The notes beneath the pieces were generated by a model that searched no databases, was not told the origin of the DNA, and worked only from the letters and a program-made list of their open reading frames with translations. 64,000 nucleotides of DNA from Callorhinchus milii (lineage: Eukaryota): positions 77,750,001-77,814,000 of the forward strand of contig NW_024704742.1 in assembly GCF_018977255.1 (NCBI RefSeq). Reading direction: 5' to 3'. A program made the position numbers and the translations under genes. Positions 40,975 to 64,000 of this stretch are shown piece after piece. Every line of letters starts with the position of its first letter. Positions within the stretch are counted from its first letter, which is position 1.

Positions 40975-41150
40975 ACTGCTTTTTGGGCCAAAACATTCCA
41001 CATTTTCATAACCTGTGTGAAGAAATGTTTCCTGACCTCAGTTCTAACTTTTGGCTCTGATTTTAAGGCTATGTCCTCTTGTAATGAGTTCCTCTACCAA
41101 AGTGTTGTACGCTATTTAACCTGTCAATTCCTTTCATTATTTTAAATACA
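40975..41150 (-). mobile_element. Old CR1 3' fragment
   Basis: cattccaca..gtgtgaagaaatgtttcctgacctcagttct; similar to 54370-54480. Confidence 0.6.
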
Positions 41151-41383
41151 GTGGTTTAGCATAGCTGAGGAATACAAGAAGACTGAGGCTAGATGCTTTC
41201 CTAATTTTCTTGATAATCCTGATTTCTCCCTAACATTTTGTTGGGAATTGGAAGATCCAGCTGTACATCATTTTCCTCTTCCTCATTCAATAATATCTAT
41301 GATTGCAAATGGAACGAACATATTTTATTGGTGTGAGCTTGGTGGTCCAAACTTGTTGATGCACATTTTTATGTTGTGTGTAG

Positions 41384-47601: not shown

Positions 47602-47768
47602 CAATAATAACAACAACAAGAAGATTACATTTGTATAGCGCCTTTCACGTCGGGAGGACGTCCCATTTATGTAGTGCCCTTCATGTGGTTAGCATCTCGG
47701 AGCGCTTGGACGTCCCAAAACGTTTGACAGTACTGGCCAGACACTCGAGCTGGGGGTGGGAGCCAAGC
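47602..47768 (-). mobile_element. Interleaved L2 3' tails about 15 nt from an exon donor
   Basis: (aac)n..acatttgtatagcgcctttcacgtcgggaggacgtccc. Confidence 0.8.
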
Positions 47769-47977: not shown

Positions 47978-48088
47978 GTGGATGGAGTTGACTTGCGAGA
48001 TGCCAGCCATGAGCAGGCAGTTGAAGCAATTAGAAAAGCAGGCAGCCCAGTGGTATTTTTAGTCCAGAGTTTAATAACCAGGCCTCAG
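47978..48088 (+). CDS. MPDZ: MPDZ exon, PDZ7 end: [37 protein letters not shown]
   Basis: ttgtag| acceptor, CAG|gtacgt donor; 111 nt, phase 0-0. Confidence 0.96.
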
Positions 48089-49365
48089 GTACGTATGCTA
48101 TGAAAAGCATAAAAAATGGCAAAGTATACTGTCAAAGCTGCCTCCTGAACTGGATTAAACCTTTAATTTGTGTAGTATACACTTACACAAAGATCATTCT
48201 ACTTTTTGTTTCAACATTTTATGTCTTTGACTCAATGACCTGCAGTATACAGTACTATGGTAAAAACATATGTGGCTGAAGGTCCAGTTTTCAACATATG
48301 CAAACTTCTAAGGATAAAGAAATTGTAAACGGTGTTGAAAATGAGTGGCTATGCTAATAATATAATTTGTGGTATGCGATCCCATAGGTATTCACGATTT
48401 CTGATCAGTTGCACATTTGGGTAAAGTAAAAAGTTCCCAATGTGTCCATTCTCTATTAGAAAATATTGGAAGGAAGATAGATGCATCGGATCAACAGTTT
48501 GTTTAGATATTAGTTATTGAAGAATCCTAAGCTTTAGTGGAACTCATTTTTTATCTTAAATAAATTATGTAATTTTTTCAAGGGCAACTATTTAGAGCTA
48601 TTTATAAATTAACAATTTATTTAATTTACCTCTACAATTTAACAGTGTCATTTGCTTAAATGTTAGTCTGTTAGCCCAAACGTTCAGAACAAATGGATAA
48701 TGTCCAGTAGGTTTTAAAATATAACAAACTGGCCATACCTTCATATAATGCATCTTCCACAGAAAAAGGCATACATAATAGAACCATATTGTTACTGTAA
48801 CATACTTTACAGAATCTGCCTAGCAAAAAAAACACTGATTTTTGCGTTTTTCATATTTTCCAGTTTTCATCCACTACTGAAAATTAGTCAACCTATTCTA
48901 TCTTCTTCATTAAGTTTTTTTTTTGACATGATGTTGCTATGTGTAGCTTTATCACTGGTGCAACCTTAACCAATTTTCAGTCACTGAGATGTCAAGATGC
49001 CCCAGAATCATGTCAGTCAAATTTTATGCTCTGATATTAAATTTATTTTTTATTTATCTATAGTGCCAAAAGTAGCAATCACATTAATTAAGTGCTAGTT
49101 TACTGTATAATAATACGTTTCGCCTTTCTTTTCAAAAGAGATTTGTTCACCAGATGTGTGCAGCAAACCCAGTATAAAAAAGCATATTTTGTGATTACTT
49201 CTTGTACTTCTTTATGATTCAGCTGTATGGATAGTTCTGCACAGATGTTCCTAAATCAGGTGTACTAATGTAGTTGACCCCTATAGTGCTAATTTTTAGA
49301 GCATATTTCATCTTTTACTATTTTCATTCAAATTTTCCCTCCATTTCATGCCTTTGTGTTCCCAG

Positions 49366-49455
49366 CCAGAATCCCTGTGTAATTGTTCATCAATATTTGC
49401 TCTTAGAGGGCAGTAACCTACCTCCACTAACCCATTCTCCCTTGATTCAACTAAG
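49366..49455 (+). other. MPDZ: Candidate stop-containing (poison or decayed) cassette exon: PESLCNCSSIFALRGQ*PTSTNPFSLDSTK
   Basis: Long pyrimidine tract + cccag|, AAG|gtaaat donor; 90 nt, phase 0-0; TAA at 49414-49416; STNPF motif like the neighbouring exons. Confidence 0.5.
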
Positions 49456-50176
49456 GTAAATGTATCATTTCATTTGTGATGGTAGACCCCTTTGAAAGAT
49501 ATTGGTTTCTTCTTTACCATTTAAACATATCTGTTTAGTGGGCATTTTATATTTTGCTTCTTTAAAACTAAACAAATAGAGTATTCATCAACATAAAACT
49601 CCCCAATGAGATGATCAGAACAGCTTGTAATCTTGCATAATTTTCAATTAACAGCAGTTCTCACTAATACACATTGCACGTGAACTTATGTTACGCAGCC
49701 TCATTGCAGAGTGTGGTATCAGTTGTACATTTCTTAGCTTTTAAGTGAAGATACTGTTTTGGGAAATGCAAGTGTGTGCTGAAATTGAAGCAGTTATTGA
49801 GATAAGCTTGATGTTGTCATAGTTTCACTTTGCTCTCCTTAAATTTGGAGTGCAAATAAAAACTTGATTCTGATTCAATAGTAAATAAGTCAGTGCTAGT
49901 TTGAGGAGATTAAAATGAGTCATTCTGGTCCTTAAGGAAGATGAAAAAAATACAATGGAGTGAATGGCCTTTTCTCATTCCTACATTACTTTGTTCTAAT
50001 CAGAAAATGACTCTCTGAACATGTTATGGTGGAGTACAACCCAATCAAAAATGTAGTGCTAACAATTTCTAAGTCGTGTTTTATCTCAGTAAATGTAATA
50101 TATGCACCAGGGATGATAACGTGCCTGCACATGTTTTGATGCAAATGATGAAATGTTGTTTTTGTCTTGGTTTCAG

Positions 50177-50275
50177 AAACGACCTTTGTCTTTCCTGCAG
50201 TCTAACACCTTGCCCGAATGCAGCAGCGGCAATACTAACCCATTTGCTGAATCTTTTCAGACCCGTATTAGCCAG
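50177..50275 (+). CDS. MPDZ: MPDZ cassette exon: KRPLSFLQSNTLPECSSGNTNPFAESFQTRISQ
   Basis: tttcag| acceptor, CAG|gttgga donor; 99 nt; resembles human KSPLPSLLHNLYPKYNFSSTNPFADSLQINADK. Confidence 0.85.
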
Positions 50276-51007
50276 GTTGGATAACGCTTGTGTGTTCTCT
50301 CTTCATTCTGTGCCTTTTAGTATGTCTCTTATTATGAGATTATTCTTTCTAGAAATTAAATTTGTAAACTTGTAAATTAAATAAAGTGCAGAGCTATTGT
50401 TATGTTTTAGTAAAGATTTCTTCTGGGCCATGTATTAATATCTCAACGTGTTGCCTAAACCACTGAATATTATCTTGTCTCTAAAGACTTTAGTCTTGGT
50501 CTGCATGTTCTATTTTCTACATTTCTTTTTGTTTAAAAGAAAATCTGCTTCAGAACCCTTTAAAATCTCAAAATATTGTGTAAATATACTCTGAGGAGGA
50601 GGCACAATGTTAGAACCTGTTCCCTTTTACCTATTAAGATTTTGATTTGAGGGCTCCACTATCTGTTGAATTTGGGCTATCTCAGATTCTTAATGAGAGT
50701 GACCACAATGACCATAACATCACAAAAATTGGTATTGTATTCACCGATATGGACAGTAAAGATAGCTACAAAATGTAGGAAAGCGTTCAATTTACTGATG
50801 GGTCAAACGTGCTTTGAGCAGAAAATATAATCCCTTCAACATAGTAACATTGGTACTGTATTTGGGAAAAGAAAATGTCTTTGTCATAATTATTCAAACA
50901 TAGTTATTCCCTTTTGATTCAGTGTGATTTACTGAATGAGAAAGTTCTGTTGTTATTGGACAGGTCTTCAATATTATTTTTCTTATTGCATTTGTGCATT
51001 TTAATAG

Positions 51008-51091
51008 ACTTCTGCAGCTTCAAATGGTGAGAAGGCCTGCCAAATGCCTTATTATATGACCAAAAAAACATTTTACGAAAATAAATTGAAG
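51008..51091 (+). CDS. MPDZ: Candidate MPDZ cassette exon: TSAASNGEKACQMPYYMTKKTFYENKLK
   Basis: ttttaatag| acceptor, AAG|gttagt donor; 84 nt open, phase 0-0. Confidence 0.6.
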
Positions 51092-51169
51092 GTTAGTGAG
51101 TCACGTTGATGTGGACTGGCAACGATTGATTGTTTTTTGTCATAATTTTTTTCCTCTTTTACTCTCTAT

Positions 51170-51845
51170 TCCTCTTTGAGGGCACTGAGTGTTGGATTGG
51201 TAACTCTTCAGCACCTTGCTAAAGTTACAATTTTTCATATGTGATCCGGCACACAGTGAATGTTAGCAGGGTATTTGACCCTTGTAGTGAATGTGGTTAA
51301 GTTATTTGATCTTGTAGGACCAGGTCCCATCTGATTCCTTCTTATCATTCATGCTTTTCAGCAGAGCTGCTATTCCTTGTAATTTGCATCTTTCTGATAT
51401 GAGTGCCTTATCACGTCTTTGAGACGTCTCAAAGCGCTTCACAGGATATACTGTAAAGTGGATCGACTGTGTGTTGCGTCAGCCAGTTGCGCACAGCAAT
51501 GTCCCACAAACAGACATGGAGTGAGTGACCAATTTTATTTTGGGGGGATATGTTGGACAGCATACTGGGAGAAACTCCTTACATCTTTCATGTCCACCTA
51601 ACAGGTAGATAGGACCTCGGTTTAACATCTCATCCAAAAGAGTAAGTACTTTATAATCATTAGGAATGGAAATCTTAGCTGATTTGTTTTGCCCTTCCCT
51701 GTTCCAGGGTACTAAGTTAACTGTAGCACTCTCATTGAGCTCAGCTAAATTAGCACAGATAGGGAATTGCATCTGTGACTTTCTGGTCTGTATGGTTTGG
51801 TATAACACAAGACAGTGCCTTTACCCACTAGGCTATCAATGAAGA
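51170..51845 (-). mobile_element. Old family Y copy interrupted by a Deu-type SINE (51376-51640, minus)
   Basis: Y end ctggtctgtatgg..gtgcctttacccact; inner SINE ggacctcggtttaacatctcatcc. Confidence 0.6.
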
Positions 51846-52036
51846 TCACATCTTTATGATTTTAATGCAAGAAGTGCTCTACGCAACTAAAAGTGATACA
51901 TTAACACAATGTTTCAGTGTCTACATCAACATGTAGTTTGTTTTTACTTCTTAATAAATCTTTTAAAAAGTTTGCTAACACCTGAGGATGAGGTCTTCTG
52001 GTTTCTATGCAACCATTTGTTTTTGTTTTGTACTAG

Positions 52037-52093
52037 GATTCTGCATATCAAGCTAGAACCTATACGCTCCCTTTCCCAACTAATCCCTTTAAG
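52037..52093 (+). CDS. MPDZ: Candidate MPDZ cassette exon: DSAYQARTYTLPFPTNPFK
   Basis: tttttgttttgtactag| acceptor, AAG|gtttgt donor; 57 nt open, phase 0-0; TNPF motif. Confidence 0.65.
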
Positions 52094-53363
52094 GTTTGTG
52101 GATTCCTGCAGGATTTTGGATGTTAATGATGGTTGGCTATTCCATGTGCTGTAAATGTGTGATTCTTAAAGGTGATGTGAAAAGATTAATTAAATTGGCT
52201 AAGGTGTGTTGTTAGGGTGTCTTTTTGTACAATTAATGTTTCATCGCTAAATTCTAGATCCGAATTAATGTTATTTTATTTAAAAAATGGTAGTTTTATA
52301 CCCAAATCAATTTCCAAAACTAGCAATAGTTTGGCAGTGTGTGTACTTAGTACATAAATTATTCAGTTCCCCTTTCATCTTTGACATGTAATTTTTAAAA
52401 TTTAAACTTCTCAAGAAATTTACAATTAGAATGCCGCCATAATTTGTTCTAATTGAATCCTATATTTAAAACTGTAGTTTGAACAAAATTGTGTTTATTG
52501 TTTAATTTATATGAAGTTTCTTAGTTGAGTCTTAAGATGCTTCCTTGTCCAACCTCTACATTATAAACATAAAATGTATCAGTTAAATGTAAGAATGGGT
52601 AACATTAAGGGTATCGGCTTTCCTTTTGTACTTGTATTTTCTGGGAACTGGGACACTGTCCCTTTAAATGTTCAACACTTATGGTTTTCCCCTACAACTG
52701 ATGTCTGTTTTTGCGGACAAGGGAGACCAACTGTTCATTCCCAATTTCCATGCATTGATGCCTGCTGGAAAGCATATAAGTGAGGACAGAATGAGTAAGT
52801 TTAGATTTCATCCACAAACAAAAAAATTGATTGCACTTTGCTATCTCATTTGACTCATAATGGATGACCATTTCAAAGAGGTAACAGAGCTGGATGCTCT
52901 CCAGAATCTCTTCCAATGTCTTCAGGGAAGGAAAGAAGACATACATTTTGTAATACTCCTTTTACATGAACAAGTATTGCTGAACTTGTAAAGTTTTTAT
53001 GTATACAGAATGACCGAAGACTATATCTGAGATAAGTAACCTGGTAGAATATGCTTTATTTGAAGCATTTTGAGATGTCCTCCCAACGTGAACAATGCTA
53101 CTTTAATATAAATTGTACTGTTTTCCGGTAACTAAATTGGGCAAATATTTTACACTGAAAGTTCTTCCACTACATTCACCTTTCTGTATTCATAGTTTTT
53201 AAAGGTAAACTGTAAAATTCTATGTATTTCATTCTCGAGAGCATTTATAAAACAAGCAAAAGTATTTCACGGAGGTTCCTCAATCATTGCCAATTCATTA
53301 AAAGCAAGTAGGATTAGAAAGAGTCTGGCTATTTAATTATAGGATAGATGACACGGGGTGATA

Positions 53364-53549
53364 TTAATGTTGGGAGGCGGCGGCAGGAGAGCGCGGGGAG
53401 GAGCCTGGGCCTACTTTCAGGTAGTATAAAGCTCGAGGCGGCAGGGAGTTCAGCTCGGGGGGGTGGGGGGAGGGTAGAGCGGGGGAACCGCTGACATCAT
53501 GGTTTAGTTTCAGGAGTGTGCGCGCGCAAAAAAAAAAAAAAAAAAAATC
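53364..53549 (+). promoter_or_regulatory. GC/CpG-rich segment with TATAAA and an A20 tract at the L2 5' end (possible promoter or chimeric leader)
   Basis: tataaa at about 53425, tgacatca at about 53492, cgcgcgc + A20 at 53528-53547 in otherwise CpG-poor DNA. Confidence 0.35.
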
Positions 53550-56500
53550 CTCTGCGCCCACCCTAGGGCTCGCATCAGGGAACACCATGTTCCTGTTGGG
53601 TTGGCTGCCCCAGACCCAGCCTATGGGCTAATGTTGTCTGCCTGACCGCTCGCTCCCGGTCCCCGCGTGCACATTATGGCTGCCGCTCTGACCCTCACCC
53701 CCTCACCCCTCCCTCCCTCCTCCCTTCCCCCAAACATTCCCCCCTCTGCATCTCTCCCGCTCTCTCCTCCTCTCTCTCTGTCCCCCTCGCCTTCTATCCC
53801 CACTTGACCCTCCTACAACCTCCCTCTGCTCCAGCCTGGGAATCCTCCGCCGGGCTCACCGTGGAACTCGGCGTTGGCTGTCCAGCAGCAGCCACTCCAA
53901 CTGCCCCATTCCCCACCACACTCGCCAGCCACCCCGGACACAGACCCAGGGAACCAATCTCTCCTCCCTCATCCCCATCCCCCCCACCCCTGCCTCACAA
54001 TCTGGACCCCCCTCCCCTCCCACACACCTTTCTGTCAACCACATCGGACTACAAAATGTCCGCTCCCTCTGTAATAAGGCCCTGGTCATCAACGAACTCA
54101 TCCTTGATGAGAGCGTTGACATCATGGCCTTAACTGAAACCTGGCTCACCCCAAGTCACATAACATAACATGTAGGAGCAGGAGTAGGCCATTCGGCCCT
54201 TCGAGCCTGCCCCGCCATTCAATCATGGCTGATCTTCTAATCTAACTCCAGCTAATAACCTTAATCCTGCCTTATCCCCATATCCCTTAATCCCTTTTGC
54301 AATAAGAAATATATCTATCTCAGTCTTGAATATGTTCAAGGACTGAGCGTCAACAGCCCTTTGGGGTAATGAGTTCCATACATTCACCACCCTTTGAGTG
54401 AAGACGTTCTTCCTCAACTCAGTGCGAAAGGGCTGGCCTCTGATTTCAAGGTTATGACCCCTGGTTTTAGTTTCTCCAACCAGGGGAAACAATCTCCCAC
54501 TATCTACTCTATTATGCCCTTTGATGATCTTATAGGTTTCTATAAGATCCCCTCTAATTCTTCTATATTCTAGAGAATATCAGCCCAAATTGGTCAGCCT
54601 ATCCTCGTAACTCATCCCCTTCATCCCAGGCACTAACCTAGTAAATCTACGCTGCACCCCCTCCAAGGCAAGTACATCCTTCCTTAAACGAGGAGACCAA
54701 AACTGGACACAGTATTCCAGGTGTGGTCTCACCAGGGCCCTATACAGTTGCAGCAAGACTTCCCTACTCTTATACTCTAATCCTTTCATAATGAATGCTA
54801 ACATACTGTTCGCCTTCCTAATTGCTGCTGCACCTACAGACTAACTTTCTGTGATTGGTGTACAAGGACACCCAAGTCCCTCTGGACGCTAACACATTCC
54901 AATCTCTCCCCTTCTAAAAAAATAACCCCCTCTACTGTTTTTGCTACCTAGGTGGATGACTTCGCACTTCCCTACAGTATACGTCATCTGCCACCTACCT
55001 GCCCAATCAGCTAACCTATCTATGTCTCGCTGCATTTTTCTAATGTCGTCCTCTGTGTTGGCACTTCCTCCTAGTTTTGTGTCATCCGCGAATTAGCTTT
55101 GATGTCCTCATCTTCCCCCTCACGGAGACCACACCACCCGGCTACACCTCCCACCACATCCCTCGCCCCAACCGCTGTGGCGATGGTGTAGCCCTTATCT
55201 CAAGGACACAACTTGCCCTATCCCCCTACTCCTCTGGCTCTTTCCCTTCTTTTGAGCACCTCACCCTCTCCCACCCGTCCCATCTCTCACTCAAACTTCT
55301 CCTCCTCTACCGGCCCCCTAAAACCTCTCCCACCTTCATCTCTGACATTTCTACCCTCCTAACATCTCTCTGTTTCTGCTCTGATCGCCTCATCATCCTG
55401 GGCGACTTCAACTTGCACTTCACCCCCTCCTGCTCCACCTCCTCGGACTTCTCCTCCCTTCTCTCCTCGCTCAACCTCTCCCTGCACATCAACTCCATCA
55501 CTCACATTCACGGCCAACCACTCGATTTGGTGATCACCCAAGGCCTCAGTGTCTTGGATGTCACCATTACCGATAACGCCGTCTTTGATCACCACTTCAT
55601 CTCCTTCACCACCTCCACCCCCCTCCCTACCTCCACCAGACCCACCACCATCTTCTACTGCCCCTGGAAGAAGTTACCCCCACAATTTTTAACCGCTTCC
55701 TTGGAGTCCTCTGAACTCCTCTCCCTCTGGCCTTCAACCCTCACTGACCCCTCTTCTGCTCTCACCCTCCTCCACAACACCCTCTCCTCCACACTCGACA
55801 CTTTTGCCCCCATCACCTCCCGTACTGTCCCTTACTCTCACTCCTCCCCCTGGTTCACCATCCACCTCTGCTCACTGAAGAGCCAGGTGCGGGCCGCTGA
55901 ACGCACCTGCCTCAAATCTGGCCTATAAATCCACCGGCAAATCTGGCTGGACCGCCTCAAAACCTACCGCTCCACTCTATCTAGCCTCGGCCAAGTCGTC
56001 CTTCTACTCCAGGATAATCCTGGAGGCAAAGAACAACCCCAGGCTTCTGTTCTCCACCACATCCGTCCCCCACCGCCACCCCATGCAGGTCATCTCCTCC
56101 AACCTTCACTGCGAGGAGATGCTGGATTTCCTTGAATCCAAAATCAAGGGAATCCGCTCCGCGATCACTGCCCCTTCAACTTCCCCCCACCCCCCACCCC
56201 TTCCCTCCCACACGCCGACTCCTACCCATCCTCCCCTACACACCTTCAAACCCGTTTCCCCACCCTCTGTCACCAACCTCATCCTGTCCTTGAAACCCAC
56301 CACCTGCTCCCTTGACCCCATCCCCACTCCACTCCTTATCTCCCAGCTCCACCTCCTTGCCCCACTTTTCACAGACACCATTAACCTGTCCCTCTCCTCT
56401 GGCTCTGTTCCCATTCCCCTCAAAACTGCCACCATCATTCCCACACTGAAAAAACCCTCCCTTGATGCGTCGCAGCTATCAAGCTACCGGCCCACCTCCA

Positions 56501-57815
56501 ACCTCCCCTTCCTGTCCAAGGTTCTCGAAAGAGTCGTCGCCTCCCAGCTGCGCTCTTTCCTCTCCACCCATTCACTTTTTGAACCCCTCCAGTCGGGTTT
56601 CTGTGCTGCCCATAGCTCCTCCTCAACCTTCAAAGCCCTGTCCTTGAGTGGTTTAGGTCCTACCTCTCCCACCGTCTTCATTTTATCTCCGCTAACGGCT
56701 TTTCCTCCAGCCCCCGCACTGTCTCGTGCTGTGTCCCTCAAGGCTCTGTCCTCGGGCCCCTCCTCTTCACCCTCTATATGCTCTCACTCAGTGACATCAT
56801 CCGCAGACATGGGGTTAACTTCCATATGTATGCGGATGACACCCAACTCTACCTTTCCTCCTCTACCCTCAACTCCACGACCACCGATGTCCTGACAGCT
56901 GCCTGTCCGACATCGAGTCCTGGACGAGAGACAACTTTCTTCAGCTCAACGTGCGAAAAACCGAGGCCCTCCTGATTGGCTCACGTCAGCGCCTCCGCAC
57001 CTCAGGCGCTGACACCATCAGCATCCAGGCCGGACTCTCCACCTCTCAAAGCCAGTCAGGAACCTCGGGGTTCTGTTTGACCCTGAGCTGTCCTTTCTCC
57101 CTCATATCCGCACCACAACTGGCACCGCCTTCCATCACCTCTGGAACATCGCCAGACTACGGCACTACCTCACCCCTCACGCTGCTGAAACCCTGGTCCA
57201 CGCCTTTATCACCTCAAGGCTGGACTACAGGAACTCTCTCCTCGCCGGCCATCCCGGCACCTCCCTCCACAAGCTGCAGGTCATTCAGAACTCTGCAGCT
57301 CGTGTACTGTCCCGCACCAGGCTTCGCGACCACATCACTCCCACCCTCGCTCGCCTCCACTGGCTCCCCATCCCCCAGAGGATTGATTTCAAGATCCTCA
57401 TCCTCACCTACAAGGCCATTCACGGCCTTGCTCCCTCCTACCTCTCCAACCTACTATCCCCTACTTACCTGCCCATACCCTCCGTTCCTCTGGCTCCGGT
57501 CTGCTCCACGTCCCCCGCCCCAACCATCCTACCATCGGTGGTCGGGCCTTCAGCCTCTCAGCCCCGAGGCTCTGGAACTCTATCCCCCAGTGCCTTCGCT
57601 GCCTCCTCCCTCTCCTCCTTCAAGGCCGGTCTCAAAACCTTTCTCTTTGACCGTGCCTTCAGCTCCCCTCTCGACTCTCTACCCCCTCCTCGCTCCCTCC
57701 CTTCCCTGCCCTCACCCTGACCATTTCCCCCCTGCTCGGGTCCTGACCCAACTGTACAGCGCCTTGGGACGTCCTCCCGACGTGAAAGGCGCTCGATAAA
57801 TGCAAACTTCTTGTA
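53550..57815 (+). mobile_element. Near full-length single-ORF L2 LINE (APE endonuclease + RT), disrupted
   Basis: LGILRRAHRGTRR (53836), QNVRSL..ALTETWL (54052), [19 protein letters not shown]2 tail; frameshifts and an internal deletion near 56615. Confidence 0.93.
54158..55099 (-). mobile_element. CR1 LINE 3' fragment inserted antisense into the L2 endonuclease domain
   Basis: FADDTKL at its 5' edge, LYRALVRPHLEYCVQFWSP, (atgtt)n tail. Confidence 0.95.
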
Positions 57816-58745
57816 ATAAATCTCAAATGAATTATTAAAAAAGTATAGTAATTATTAGTTTCAATTATGTGTTTACGTCTAATAAAGTTTATTTTTAGTA
57901 AACAAAGATGTCTTTGGAAGGGACGTAGAAACATCATAACTATTGTCCATTAATATGCATCAAACTGGTTATGCTATTGGGGTGAAGGAGGAAGCAGGGT
58001 GAAAAACAAGACAGTGGACATAGAGAGAGGAAGGGAAGGTGGGAGAGAGAGGTTGAAGAGACAGAGTCAGCAGGTCCCCCCACGTTAACTTGTCACCTAA
58101 TGATGTGCAGTTATGAATATTAAATTAAGACATATTGAATTAATAGGAGACCTCATATTTATTGCTAGTTTTATCTTTCAGTTTAATAACTGGTTCAGTG
58201 TCCAATTACAGTACCTGAGTTAAATAACTTGTAATGTACACTTAGTACCTATTTCAATCTTTTCATATCACCGGTAATGATCACTTATCCATCTGTCTCA
58301 GTTTGCATGATGTGGTTGTTGAGGCAAGAAGGTTCTGCGATAGTGATCTGTAACAGAGTAATACAGCTACCCAGTAAGGTTTCCTGTGAGTATGAAGTGC
58401 TAATTTTTGAACACTTGGTGCTATTGACAACCGTTTTCTTTACTTATCTTGTTCAAATTGTTTGTGTATATCTTTGTGGTGAATTTTTTTTGCAATTTTT
58501 GATTTTTGTGTTTAAATTTACTTTGCATTTTTTAGGGGTTTCTTTGACTCTGAGCATGTTGGAAAGCTCTCCGCATGTGTGTTTGCTTAATCAAATTAAT
58601 GATGGTTTTCCTAGCAATATAATTTCAGTAAAATCTCCAGATTGTTATTCATATCTGGATAATATTCAGGCTTTGGTGATGGTCATCTTAACTTTGCAGT
58701 TAAACTTTTGGTTCTTTGACATTAAGTGATGTGGCAGAACAAGCC

Positions 58746-58814
58746 ATGCTTCCTCGTGCTGTTTCCAGCTTTGGAACTGATAAAGTTGGGGAACTGGGTG
58801 GCTTTGCTCAAGGA
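58746..58814 (+). CDS. MPDZ: Candidate alternative first coding exon: MLPRAVSSFGTDKVGELGGFAQG
   Basis: gccATG context, in-frame upstream TAA at 58701, 23 open codons, phase-0 donor GGA|gtaaga compatible with the exon at 59620. Confidence 0.4.
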
Positions 58815-59619
58815 GTAAGAAACTCATTCGCAAAGTCACTACAAGCAGCTCTTTCCACTCCCGAGTTAATTATTTTATGATTGTATTGATGAAGGTCTGA
58901 GGAATGTCACTTTTTGAACTGGTGCACGGTGTGTGAAATCTCAAGAAAGGAGAGAAAATAACTTTTTTTTGGGTGGCGGGATTAAGGTCTTGCCATCAAA
59001 AGGATAAATATATTGACTTAAAAATCATTCAGGCAAATGAATGATCATGAAATTATTTGTTTCACTATATCAAGTATACAAATACCAAGCTATGCTTACA
59101 AAATAATTGGTCACTTCACTGTAGAAATTTACAGCAGTCCAGGCATTTTTTTCTTTCATGCTTATTTGCTGCTAAAAATTCCTTCAAGCAGACTGAGCAA
59201 CATGGTGTTGAGATAGATTGAAATTGGATGGATGTTTTATACATGTAAAAAGGTCATATCTAGGATATTCTGAATTCATGTGGTTCGAAGATCTAAAGTC
59301 AAATTTGCCGCAAGTGCCTACAGCCAATAATTTACAAGCCACTGTAGATTGCACTTTATAGTCCACCTCTTCAGTGAAATAGATGCACCTGTTCTGCTTC
59401 TATTGAACTTTTTTTCCTGTTTTATTTAAATTGCAACCTAATATGCTTTACTGTGTGCAGTACTTTCTTTTAATTATTTAACCAGATCAGTTCAATACTC
59501 TGCAACATGAGAGTGAACATTGAATGCTCAAATTAATATAATTCCATGGCTCTTTCTCTTATTTCTTGTTTACTTCAACAAAATTTTATCTCACCATATT
59601 TTATTATTTCAACATTCAG

Positions 59620-59809
59620 ACTTCCAGCCAGCCTGATTTTGAGACTGAAATAACGCCAGCACTTAAGGATTCACTACTTGAAGAACCACTCTCTCAGCCA
59701 TCACCGCCTGAACCTGTTCCAGAAGCCAATATTACAGGATCTCTAGAGAAGCTGGGAATGAAGTCGGAGGATCCAACTGAAGAAGAAGATGAATTTGGTT
59801 ACTCCTGGA
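59620..59809 (+). CDS. MPDZ: MPDZ exon preceding PDZ8: TSSQPDFETE...EEEDEFGYSW
   Basis: attcag| acceptor, A|gtatgt donor; 190 nt, phase 0-1; EDEFGYSW motif. Confidence 0.94.
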
Positions 59810-60622
59810 GTATGTATTTTTCTACAGTTTTTTTAAGAAATTCGATGTGGTACGTTGTATAATGTATACATTGTATATATTGCATTGTAGTTTGGTTTGT
59901 TCAAACCATAATAACACTACTAAATTAACATGGAATATTTTACAGAATAGAAGTACTATTGTGTAATGGAACATTTCTAAACTTGCAATGAAAAAAGTTT
60001 ATTTTAATTTATTTTGTACAGCGTTTGGAAACACAATATTTCAGGTTTCTGAAAGTTGCCTGAGTAATTGCTGCTCATTGGTGAATAAAACTAAATTAGT
60101 GAACATCAGCATTCTGGCTCTAATCTGTACATTAACATTTTGTATGGGATGAGTACTTTAAATTGCCTTCTCTGCAGTAACATTTGGTTCTAATTTAGAG
60201 AAGTTAATGACTGGAACAACAACAACAAAATTAGATTTGTATAGACCTTGAGGATTTGCAATGTTTGGTTTGCAAATCCCTTCAAATCTTTTGAGTATTG
60301 CCTTAGAAGGCCTGGGAACATTTAATGTTCTTTATTAACGTTATCAAAGAGAATCTTTAATAGATGACTTTTTTAATAATGTTAACAACCAAACACACAA
60401 TTTTTCATGGGAATCAAGTGTTTGTAGTTTTAGTCATAGAACTACAGCAAGTATTGTTTCAGCTTTTTCTTATTGATTTGCAACAAGTTATACTTTTATA
60501 GCATCAATATTTTGCCTCTGTGTTGCATTAAAATGTCAGATTTTCAACAATTGTGCAATTGGAGCTATACAGGATTAAAACAATAAACAAGTCCCCTCAG
60601 GGATCAGACATTGAGGCTAGTA

Positions 60623-62485
60623 CAACAACAATAAAATCACATTTGTATAGCTCCTTTCACGTCAGTAGGACGTTGCAAGGCGCTGGACAGTCAGTGTTTC
60701 AGACCCAAGCTGGGGCTCAGGATTTGGGAGGGTGGAGGGCAGGGGGGGGAAGCAGGGTGATCAAAAGCACGGTCGAAGAGGACGGTCTTGAGATGGGTCT
60801 TGAAGGAGGCAGGGGAGGGGGTGAGGTGGAGGGACTGCGGGATGGAGTTCCAGAGAGTGGGGGCAGAGTGGCAGAAGGCCCGCCCACCAATTGGAGGGCA
60901 GAGGAGGCAATGTTGAGGAGGTGGGGAAAGGCAGAGCGGGTCATAGCACGGATGTGGGGGATGAAGGACAATGAGCGTGAAACAGGACGCCGAGGTTCCG
61001 TATTGGCTCCATGAGGTGTAGAGTGCATCCATGAAGGGTGATGCTGTCAATGCCCGAGGTAGGGAGGCGCGGACTGGAGCCAAGCAGGAGGGCCTCAGTC
61101 TTGTTCACATTCAACTGGAGGAAGTTTGCTTTCATCCAGGACTTGATGTGCGACAGATAGTCTGTGAGAACAGCAGTGGTCCTGGAGGCAAGGACAGGTC
61201 CGTGAAGGTTGAGCTGAGAGGAGATGCGGTGGAGGAGGATAGAATGGTCGACAGCAGAGAGGTCGAGGAGAATGAGGAGGCAGAAAAAGTCCTGGTCGCA
61301 GTTGGACAGAATGTGTTAGTGACTTTAACCAGGGCTGAAACCCAATTGGAGGGGTTCATTGAGGGAATAGCAGATGGGGAATGAGTGAAGCAACGACTCG
61401 TTCCAGGGCCTTGGAGAAGAAAGGGAGGTTGGAGATGGGGCGGTAGCTGGAAAGTAGTGATGAGTCCAGGGAAGATTTTTTGAGGATGGGGGTGATGGCA
61501 GCAGTGTTTAGAGGGATGGGAACAGTGGCAATGCAGTGGATAAGGAGTGGTTGATGATGTTGGTTAAAAGAGGGGCCAGGAACTGGGTTGGGGTCGAGGG
61601 AGAGGGTGGTGGGCTTCATTGTTGAGATGATGGAGTTGAGAGAAGAAGGGGAGACAGGGTTGAAAGTGCGTAAGGAGAGGTGGCTAGGGGCCAGGGTGTG
61701 AGGCAGAGGTGGGGAGGGCTTAGCGTAAACGCGGGAGAGATAGCCGAGCAAATCCCTTCGATTTTGGACTCGGAAGTACAACATCTCCTCGCAGTTGGAA
61801 TTGGAGGAGAGGATGGGCGAGGCGTGGGAAGGTGGACGGAGGAGGCGGCTTCTTGTGGAGAAGAGGACCTTGGGGTAGTCCTTGGCTCCTCTTCTCCGGA
61901 GCGGCAGGTTTTCGCATGGTCGAGCCATTTGATTTGATCTAGGTGCGTTCGGCGACACGCACTTGTGGATTGAGGGATCGGAGATGGTTGGTGTACCAGG
62001 GAGATTTCCGTGATTAGGAGACAATTCGGGAGGTGCAGGGGGCAAGGGAGTCAAAAATGTCAAGAAAGGAGGAGAAGGAGTTGTGGAGAAGAGGGAGCGA
62101 GGTGGGTAGATCATTATGAGAAGGCCAGAGAGGGGCAGGAGTTCGGATGACTCCAGGGCAGCTGAGAGGAAGTGGGGTAGAGATTTTTTTCCAGGAAGTT
62201 AGGAGATGGTGGTGGATTGAGTGGTGGGGGAGGGGGATAGAGGAGTTGAGGGGGATGAAATAGTGGTCCAAAATGGCTTTTTCAGTGATGGTGATGTCCG
62301 AGACGGTGAGGCCCGGGAGATCACCAGATCAAGGGGATGATTGTGAACGTGGACGTGGGGTTGATGTGGAAGGAGAGGAGGGAGGAGAAGTCAGCAGAGG
62401 TACAGCAGTAGGGGGTGAAGTGGAGGTTGAAGTCGCCTAGGATGAGGAGGCATTCGGAGCAGAGGAGAGAGAGGATAGGAGGGTA
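60623..62485 (-). mobile_element. Decayed, internally deleted L2 LINE
   Basis: Tail at 60623, YRPISNLPFFSKALE, ILGDFN near 62440. Confidence 0.92.
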
Positions 62486-62490
62486 GAATT

Positions 62491-64000
62491 AATAATAATA
62501 ATCCTTGCATTTGATATAGCGCCTTATCACGTCTTCAAGACAACAACAACAATTTGGATTTATATAGCGCCCTCCACGCTGGACGGCATCTCAGAGTGCT
62601 TCACATTAACGGATCCAAGGGCCGAGGCAAGGGGAGGGGGAGGAAGGTAACCAAAGGTGTGGTCGAAAAGAAAGGTCTTCAGCCGAGACCTGAAAATAGG
62701 AAGAGAGGGGGCAAGACGAAGGGAGCGCGGAAGGGAGTTCCAGAGCCTTGGGGCATAGTGGTTGAAAGCACAGCTGCCGAGGGTGGAGCGGAGGACTCAG
62801 GGGACAAGGAGGAGGCCAGACCCGGTGGAGCGAAGGCAATGGGCACTGTTGTGAGGAGAGAGGAGGTCAGAGAGGGAGGGGGTTGAAGAGGAGTGGAGGG
62901 ACTTGAAGACAAGGGTGAGGGATCTTAAAGTCGATCCTCTCTGGGACAGGCAGCCAGTGCAGTCTGGCAAGGACTGGGGTGATCGGGGAGCGCAGTTTGG
63001 TGCGGGTAAGAATGTGGGCAGCAGAGTTTTGGATGACCTGAATTTTATGAATGGTAGTAGAGGGGAGACCGGCGAGAGGAGGGCATTTGAATAGTCCAAC
63101 TGAGAGGTGACAAAGGCATGAACCAGGGTATCAGTGGCTTTTGGAGTGAGGTATTGGCGGAGACGGGCAATGCGACGGAGGTGGAAGAAAGCGGTGCTGG
63201 TGAAGGACCGGATGTGGGGCAGGAAGGATAAATGGGGGTTGAACCTGATGCCTAGGTTGCGTACGGGTTTGGATAGTTTTAGGGGGAGGTCGGGTAGGTG
63301 GAGGAGGTGAGAACCGTGAGATTTTAGACGTTGACGAGAGCCAGAGTATGGCTTCCGTCTTGTCCATATTCAGCTGAAGGAAATTTGTGCTCATCCAGCC
63401 CCTGAAGTCTGACAGACAGGCTCAAGAACATCAGGGGACTGGGGGTCGCAAAGTGAGGTGGAAAAATAGAGTTGGGTGTCGTCCGCATACATGTGGAAGT
63501 GTACCCCATGTCTGCGGATGACATTCCCAAGAGGGAGCATGTAGATCAGAAAGAGGAGGGGGCCAAGGATGGATCCTTGGGGTACCCAGCAGGTAACCGA
63601 GTGAGAGCGGGAGGAGAAGCCGTTTGTGCAGATGTACTGCTGGCGATTTGTGAGATAGGACTCGAACCAGGCGAGTGCGGTCTCCTGAGGCGGATGATGG
63701 AGGAAAGGCGGTGGAGGAGGATGGCGTGGTCGATTGTGTCGAATCCGGCGGAGAGGTCCAGGAGGGCAAGGAGGCAGAGGCAGCCCTGGTCACAGATAGA
63801 GAGGATGTCATTTGTTACTTTCACAAGCGCAGTCTCTGTCCTGTGGGCAGGGTGGAAACCGGACTGGAGGGGTTCAAAGAGGGAGTGGGAGGAGAGGTGT
63901 GCGCGGAGTTGATTGGCAACAACGCGTTCTAGGACTTTTGCGAGGAAGGGCAGGTTTGAAATAGGGTGGTAGTGGCTGGGGTTTGAGGGATCTAAGGAAG
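62491..64000 (-). mobile_element. SINE tail (62491-62540) then L2 LINE (another subfamily) running off the window end
   Basis: [33 protein letters not shown] on the minus strand. Confidence 0.92.

Follow-up and report, generated by a model that had tools for sequence, protein, structure and literature searches.

The MPDZ locus of the elephant shark (Callorhinchus milii) raises the question of whether a group of short exons between two PDZ domains allows splicing to set the number of NPF motifs in the protein, and which proteins might read these motifs. The window, by which we mean the whole 64-kb stretch of DNA that was analysed, carries the C. milii MPDZ gene: the exon at 59620-59808 is 100% identical to the UniRef C. 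milii MPDZ, and the RefSeq isoform X1 (P0121) maps to the window in 27 exon blocks. With an L27 domain (L27_2) and 13 PDZ domains identified by Pfam in this isoform, and with the match to C. milii MPDZ, the gene belongs to the MPDZ/MUPP1 family. An earlier note on this DNA had placed four exon-like segments with lengths divisible by three between PDZ7 and PDZ8, which start at residues 1113 and 1348 of isoform X1. This placement was confirmed for all four segments, here named e1 to e4 (Table 1): they fall between the seventh and eighth PDZ domains, have AG..GT boundaries, a length that is a multiple of 3, and phase 0 at both ends. Their splice sites had been described as good, which holds for the donors of e1 (score of 5.7, strong) and e3 (4.5), but not for the weak donors of e2 (0.5) and e4 (1.6), as judged with a rough scoring matrix. 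TNPF-coding sites occur only three times on the plus strand of the window, at 49426, 50234 and 52079, and once on the minus strand. These three sites correspond to the three TNPF exons that had been proposed; however, the site in e1 lies behind an in-frame TAA, so that e1 is not an open exon. Likewise, e3 had been regarded as an exon without NPF, which is correct for the elephant shark, but the e3 of sharks does carry the motif.

Table 1. Exons and exon-like segments of elephant shark MPDZ from PDZ7 to the PDZ7-PDZ8 linker (window coordinates)
Feature	Position	Strand	Basis
Upstream flanking exon, second half of PDZ7, phase-0 donor	47978..48088	+	Maps to C. milii MPDZ isoform X1; run X1 joints to 50177 and 59620
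e1, 90 nt, phase-0 exon homologue, in-frame TAA (49414-49416) before STNPF (NPF codons 49429-49437)	49366..49455	+	Translation; orthology to shark e1
e2, 99-nt cassette exon, 33 aa, one TNPF (NPF codons 50237-50245)	50177..50275	+	Run X1 joints; gene models; orthologue of the shark/bird/ruminant STNPFA exon
e3, 84-nt cassette exon, 28 aa, K-T-F (51065-51073) at the shark NPF site	51008..51091	+	Run X1 joints; gene models; alignment to shark e3
e4, 57-nt cassette exon, 19 aa, one TNPF (NPF codons 52082-52090)	52037..52093	+	Run X1 joints; alignment to shark/ray/bird/ruminant e4
Downstream flanking exon, remaining PDZ7-PDZ8 linker	59620..59809	+	UniRef C. milii MPDZ match; target of three run X1 joints

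Splicing of the segments was examined in 4 of 13 listed runs, none of which is on record as RNA. Among the runs X1, X2, X5 and X12, only X1 was informative for exon joints. Runs X5 and X12 had zero depth even over the constitutive exons 47978-48088 and 59620-59809, run X2 had no exon joints at all, and all three were excluded from the counts for or against any exon. The evidence from run X1 (as distinct from isoform X1) consists of contigs rather than reads, its RNA-type status is presumed, and its joints were placed after cut shifts. GT-AG joints were found from 48088 to 50177 (depth 113) and to 59620 (58.8), from 50275 to 51008 (49.8) and to 59620 (44.7), from 51091 to 52037 (49.8), and from 52093 to 59620 (54.7). 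Taken as a rough guide, the contig depths suggest that about 34% of the isoforms skip all segments, 31% include e2 only, and 35% include e2, e3 and e4, these forms having 0, 1 and 2 NPFs, respectively. The earlier note had suggested a search for junctions at 52037, 51008 and 49366; run X1 has joints at the first two positions and none for 49366. Thus, the view that these are real cassette exons with a splice-tunable NPF number was upheld for e2, e3 and e4, which are open in frame and have RNA joints for both inclusion and skipping, inclusion altering the NPF count. Splicing of e3 persists in the elephant shark although this exon has no NPF there. The 16 listed C. milii protein models include 8 with e2 and e3, 2 with e3 and 6 with none of the segments (e2 in 8/16, e3 in 10/16), so that RefSeq models with and without e2 and e3 exist; e1 and e4 are found in 0/16. 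As e4 is absent from these models, it rests on the run X1 joints and on orthology.

Some other features of the window are mentioned here for completeness. A short, open and coding-looking stretch followed by a phase-0 GT donor lies at 58731-58817, upstream of the 59620 exon. It is probably intronic, since it has no 6-mer match among the 260 MPDZ proteins described below and a low-depth unspliced run X1 contig spans it. Fragmented repeats of several kb at 53500-57850 and 60600-64000, which we take to be endonuclease/reverse-transcriptase-like and LINE-like, show very high contig depth and set e4 apart from the next exon. A 50-nt inverted pair (47616-47665 and 57765-57814) spans the whole array. 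Lastly, an open frame at 41146-41383, upstream of the PDZ6 exon, contributes in part to the UniRef models P0001 and P0003 but is left out of RefSeq isoform X1; this use is probably an annotation artefact.

The TAA of e1 is located in the STNPF frame, four codons upstream of the Asn, at a position where shark e1, an intact exon of the same 30 codons, has Lys. An assembly error can be dismissed, because both run X1 and run X2 have contigs with the identical codon. Nor can an internal acceptor rescue e1, as splicing at any of three alternative AG acceptors results in a stop or shifts the frame. Among the best 15 of the 57 joints in run X1, none involves either end of e1. An unspliced run X1 contig (49406-50202, depth 7.81) extends across the e1 donor, and its depth fully explains that of the bin at 49405-49825 (7.79). 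Elephant shark e1 therefore has neither an open frame nor detected inclusion, both of which are found in shark and bird models, and because of its stop codon the elephant shark has only two translatable NPFs (0, 1 or 2 per isoform) instead of three. Most likely, e1 is a skipped, recently inactivated exon in this species. Alternatively, e1 could be a working poison exon, the inclusion of which would direct MPDZ mRNA to nonsense-mediated decay or yield an L27-PDZ1-7 fragment. Such a role would be consistent with the splice-site scores of e1, which are the best of e1 to e4, and with its identity to shark e1 of 60-67% (18-20 of 30 residues), which is comparable to that of the constitutive neighbour; moreover, decay would mask inclusion in steady-state RNA. 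We nevertheless regard it as unlikely, since the listed joints of run X1 include none at either end of e1, the depth over the bin is fully accounted for by the unspliced contig, and a recent change of a single codon explains the kept similarity equally well. We thus continue to view e1 as most likely inactivated, and the genome annotation would gain from adding e4 to the listed gene models and from marking e1 as broken. At window position 49405 within e1, run X2 shows an A>C difference that is synonymous (Arg) in the NPF frame and destroys an internal AG; the run X1 contig begins at 49406, which is consistent with a polymorphism at 49405.

The relatives compared were the best 120 of 4458 matches and the members of 18 clusters, together 260 proteins, mostly RefSeq predicted models; this set is without teleost, amphibian, lizard, human and mouse proteins, and the query was without the cassette exons, which favoured skip forms. 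A phmmer query with the 33 aa of e2 alone gave 0 matches in the representative library, and a protein search with e2 restricted to lengths of up to 2000 aa was likewise empty; both outcomes reflect limited sensitivity and not absence. All four exons with five NPFs are present in models of Heterodontus, Scyliorhinus canicula, S. torazame and Carcharodon, along with many sub-combinations, and Cetorhinus has all four exons spread over different models. Among birds, e1, e2 and e4 with three TNPF motifs are present in one model each of Calidris (1/4) and Calonectris (1/3). The ruminants, represented by cattle, buffalo and deer, have two NPF exons and not one, their models containing e2, e4 or both, whereas e3 was found in cartilaginous fish only among the 260 proteins. 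The exons are well conserved between the elephant shark and sharks, with 68-82% identity for e2 to e4 (27 of 33 residues for e2) versus 58-61% for the constitutive neighbour. The TNPF core is kept although the shark and amniote exons are only about 45-50% identical. Both the reading frame and the NPF, whose conservation had been proposed as a check, are conserved from sharks to birds and ruminants.

This distribution indicates that e1, e2 and e4 were probably already present before cartilaginous and bony vertebrates diverged. Judged from the aligned protein models, the array is older and larger than had been proposed. By the same comparison, only two of five motifs are left in the elephant shark: e1 carries a nonsense codon, e3 has K-T-F in the place of its NPF, and e4 has 19 aa with one NPF, the second being absent, versus 24 aa with two NPFs in sharks. 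Erosion is also seen elsewhere. Five rays have e2 and e4 alone, in frame, with the motifs eroded to 2, 1, 1, 1 and 0; none of the 10 listed models of Mobula hypostoma has an NPF, and the array exons are absent from 13/13 models of Rhea. Some lineages can therefore do without the motifs, and the exons can be kept even where the NPF is lost. Together, sharks, birds, ruminants, the elephant shark and rays offer a natural valency series of 5, 3, 2, 1 or 0 motifs. The exons themselves are mostly already present in automatic gene models; a description of them as a conserved NPF array was not found in the literature covered. Two further splice variants were observed in the models. In the Scyliorhinus models P0147 and P0151, the second PDZ7 exon is skipped, so that e2 or e1 immediately follows the first half of PDZ7 and a broken PDZ7 lies beside the NPF array. 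In Heterodontus P0139 and P0140 and in Mobula P0170, acceptors inside e2 trim 8 or 2 residues and the motif region is kept.

The NPF motifs are confined to the linker, with 270 inside and 0 outside it across 252 proteins (252 of 255 proteins of at least 900 aa, 3 being without anchor; these are isoforms and kin and not independent). Sharks have up to 5 copies, birds up to 3, and ruminants and the elephant shark up to 2 each, spaced 24-33 aa apart except for one pair 5 aa apart. In 100,000 shuffles of the 118-aa shark insert, at least 5 NPFs were never obtained (mean of 0.155), and the clustering of NPFs in this insert thus exceeds chance. The exon region has a disorder score, based on sequence composition only, of 0.17-0.18 versus 0.07-0.12 for PDZ7/8, and no Pfam match was found in e2 or e3. 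It could be argued that such exons serve as an adjustable spacer or work through residues other than the NPF (Ser/Thr phosphosites or Phe/Pro patches), setting the distance between PDZ1-7 and PDZ8-13, with the NPF being incidental or secondary. The rays, which keep e2 and e4 with decayed motifs, and the elephant shark, which keeps a spliced e3 without NPF, agree with this idea. However, when e1, e2 and e4 are compared from shark to bird or cow, their most strongly conserved core is TNPF, the NPF recurs in four different exons and never elsewhere in the 252 proteins, and a role in length requires no fixed tripeptide. We therefore consider a spacer function quite unlikely and prefer to read the exons as carriers of NPF motifs.

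The origin of the exons was approached through their similarity to each other. At the DNA level, no exon pair was significantly similar (p≥0.064), and at the protein level, with xNPF fixed, only the e3/e4 pair stood out (p=0.015, uncorrected, 1 of 6 shark pairs). In e1, e3 and e4, exactly 6 residues separate the end of the NPF from the donor, both in sharks and in the amniote orthologues (P of about 0.005 under a uniform model, post hoc). An ancient duplication giving rise to e1, e3 and e4 is plausible on these grounds, and the distribution of the exons suggests that a duplication, if it occurred, would be older than the divergence of cartilaginous from bony vertebrates. A recent duplication within the elephant shark was rejected, as no repeat family joins the exons and their orthologues are older.

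EH domains prefer Ser or Thr before NPF. The motif is a class I EH ligand, and partners often carry it in multiple copies (PMC12808100, PMC2238750, PMC12370899; here and below, papers are cited for their accessible parts). EHD proteins favour acidic clusters after the NPF (PMC13282721), and non-EHD EH domains disfavour flanking acid (PMC2238750). The MPDZ motifs have 0-1 acidic residues at positions +1 to +3 and thus do not match the acidic-cluster criterion for EHD1-type ligands taken from PMC13282721, which would make Eps15, Eps15R, intersectin or Reps the candidate partners rather than EHD1. Splicing sets the NPF number (0-5 in shark gene models, 0-2 in the elephant shark), and we consider it probable, though far from certain, that the motifs dock the scaffold on Eps15/intersectin-type multi-EH adaptors. 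The PDZ7-PDZ8 linker of jawed-vertebrate MPDZ is extended by frame-preserving cassette exons, each with an NPF in sharks. In the proposed mechanism, the motifs lie 24-33 residues apart in a domain-free linker, tandem EH domains would be bound with an avidity that grows as exons are included, and PDZ-bound junction proteins and receptors would thereby be coupled to endocytosis or transcytosis.

The NPF is short and common, with 509 copies in disordered regions of 446 human proteins, and non-EH readers exist (PMC12808100). It is accordingly conceivable that the MPDZ motifs are functional but read by a non-EH receptor, such as COPII Sec23/24, POLE2, LDB1-SSBP or another protein, for example for export control of MPDZ cargo. 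The accessible text of PMC12808100 names these readers and cautions against assigning partners by consensus, and MPDZ is missing from the EHD partner table in the accessible part of PMC13282721. Conversely, spaced multi-copy NPFs in a membrane-proximal cytoplasmic scaffold fit the multivalent EH pattern (PMC12808100, PMC12370899), and the searchable supplements of the POLE2 paper contain no match for MPDZ. A non-EH reader is in our view decidedly unlikely, and we retain the multi-EH adaptors as the preferred partners. Choroid plexus lacking Mpdz shows increased transcytosis, LDLR surface level and LDLR uptake 'through a yet unknown pathway' (PMC6328942), and Eps15 has been tied to junction composition (PMC5391185). 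The accessible main text of PMC6328942 contains neither 'NPF' nor 'EH domain', and a literature link of MPDZ/MUPP1 to the NPF motif, EH domains, Eps15 or intersectin was not found, the coverage of subscription journals being thin. Since the knockout removes the whole protein, its phenotype is not NPF-specific. Nonetheless, for the hydrocephalus with raised transcytosis and LDLR uptake that follows MPDZ loss (PMC6328942), the NPF array provides a concrete candidate for an endocytic link.

The array may also bear on myotonic dystrophy (DM1), in which an exon of the same gene is mis-spliced. MPDZ exon 27 is repressed by MBNL and shows an inclusion shift of more than 30% in DM1 (PMC12946605). Mis-splicing in DM1 brain has also been reported for an MPDZ 'exon 28' (PMC9253038), which could correspond to e2 or e4; the source data of that paper give an Mpdz inclusion of 25-31% in wild-type versus 60-70% in DMSXL astrocytes. 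In addition, Mpdz splicing is developmentally regulated in muscle (PMC7913682), and an MPDZ exon of unspecified number is reported in PMC4817768; MPDZ has no match in the searchable supplements of PMC5082313, PMC8903011 and PMC12946605. In their accessible parts, the DM1 papers treat the MPDZ exon as a splicing marker and assign no protein function to it (PMC12946605, PMC9253038). Human Asp1434 is encoded in exon 31 (91 nt) of 47 (PMC9688216). The equivalent Asp is residue 1436 in the cattle isoform with e2 only and residue 1403 without e2; the human reference thus likely includes e2, because its numbering resembles the former and not the latter. Counting back from exon 31, the human orthologue of e2 is likely exon 27, where one exon border in this count (59809) is seen in the window, one is suggested by isoform divergence, and one is assumed by analogy with other PDZ exons. 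In the elephant shark, YGCY (MBNL-type) motifs number 1-3 per 200 nt near the exons versus a background of 1.95, and such background-level counts give no indication that MBNL controls these exons in this species. A more far-reaching proposal would be that MPDZ belongs, so far unrecognised, to the EH endocytic network, and that its exon-by-exon valency dial arose before sharks and mammals diverged. On this proposal, the MBNL-controlled exon 27, which is mis-spliced in myotonic dystrophy, would turn on a site for Eps15/intersectin docking in a junction scaffold, and this site would also account for the transcytosis phenotype in MPDZ hydrocephalus. We put this forward tentatively and regard it as doubtful in its entirety. 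If the NPF array is indeed splice-controlled in this way, a standard DM1 mis-splicing marker exon in MPDZ would gain a concrete candidate endocytic link that is cheap to test.

Several known systems resemble the MPDZ array in part. The ligands of EHD1-4, such as MICAL-L1, Rabenosyn-5 and Rab11-FIP2, share the NPF core, but have acidic clusters after it (PMC13282721), whereas in MPDZ no motif is followed by more than one acidic residue at +1 to +3. The Eps15 ligands epsin 1, stonin 2, Dab2 and Numb also have several NPFs in a domain-free region suited to tandem EH binding (PMC12808100, PMC12370899). In contrast to these four proteins, MPDZ is a junction scaffold with 13 PDZ domains, in which each motif is placed on its own optional exon and EH binding is a prediction. 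A precedent for a splice-dependent segment of the Eps15-binding type is the 170-kDa isoform of synaptojanin 1, in which an isoform-specific segment reportedly gives Eps15 binding. This segment is presumably a spliced tail with three NPFs. Unlike such an on/off tail, the array of MPDZ, with its putative EH binding, is internal and combinatorial, forming a series of 0-5 motifs on up to four phase-0 exons.
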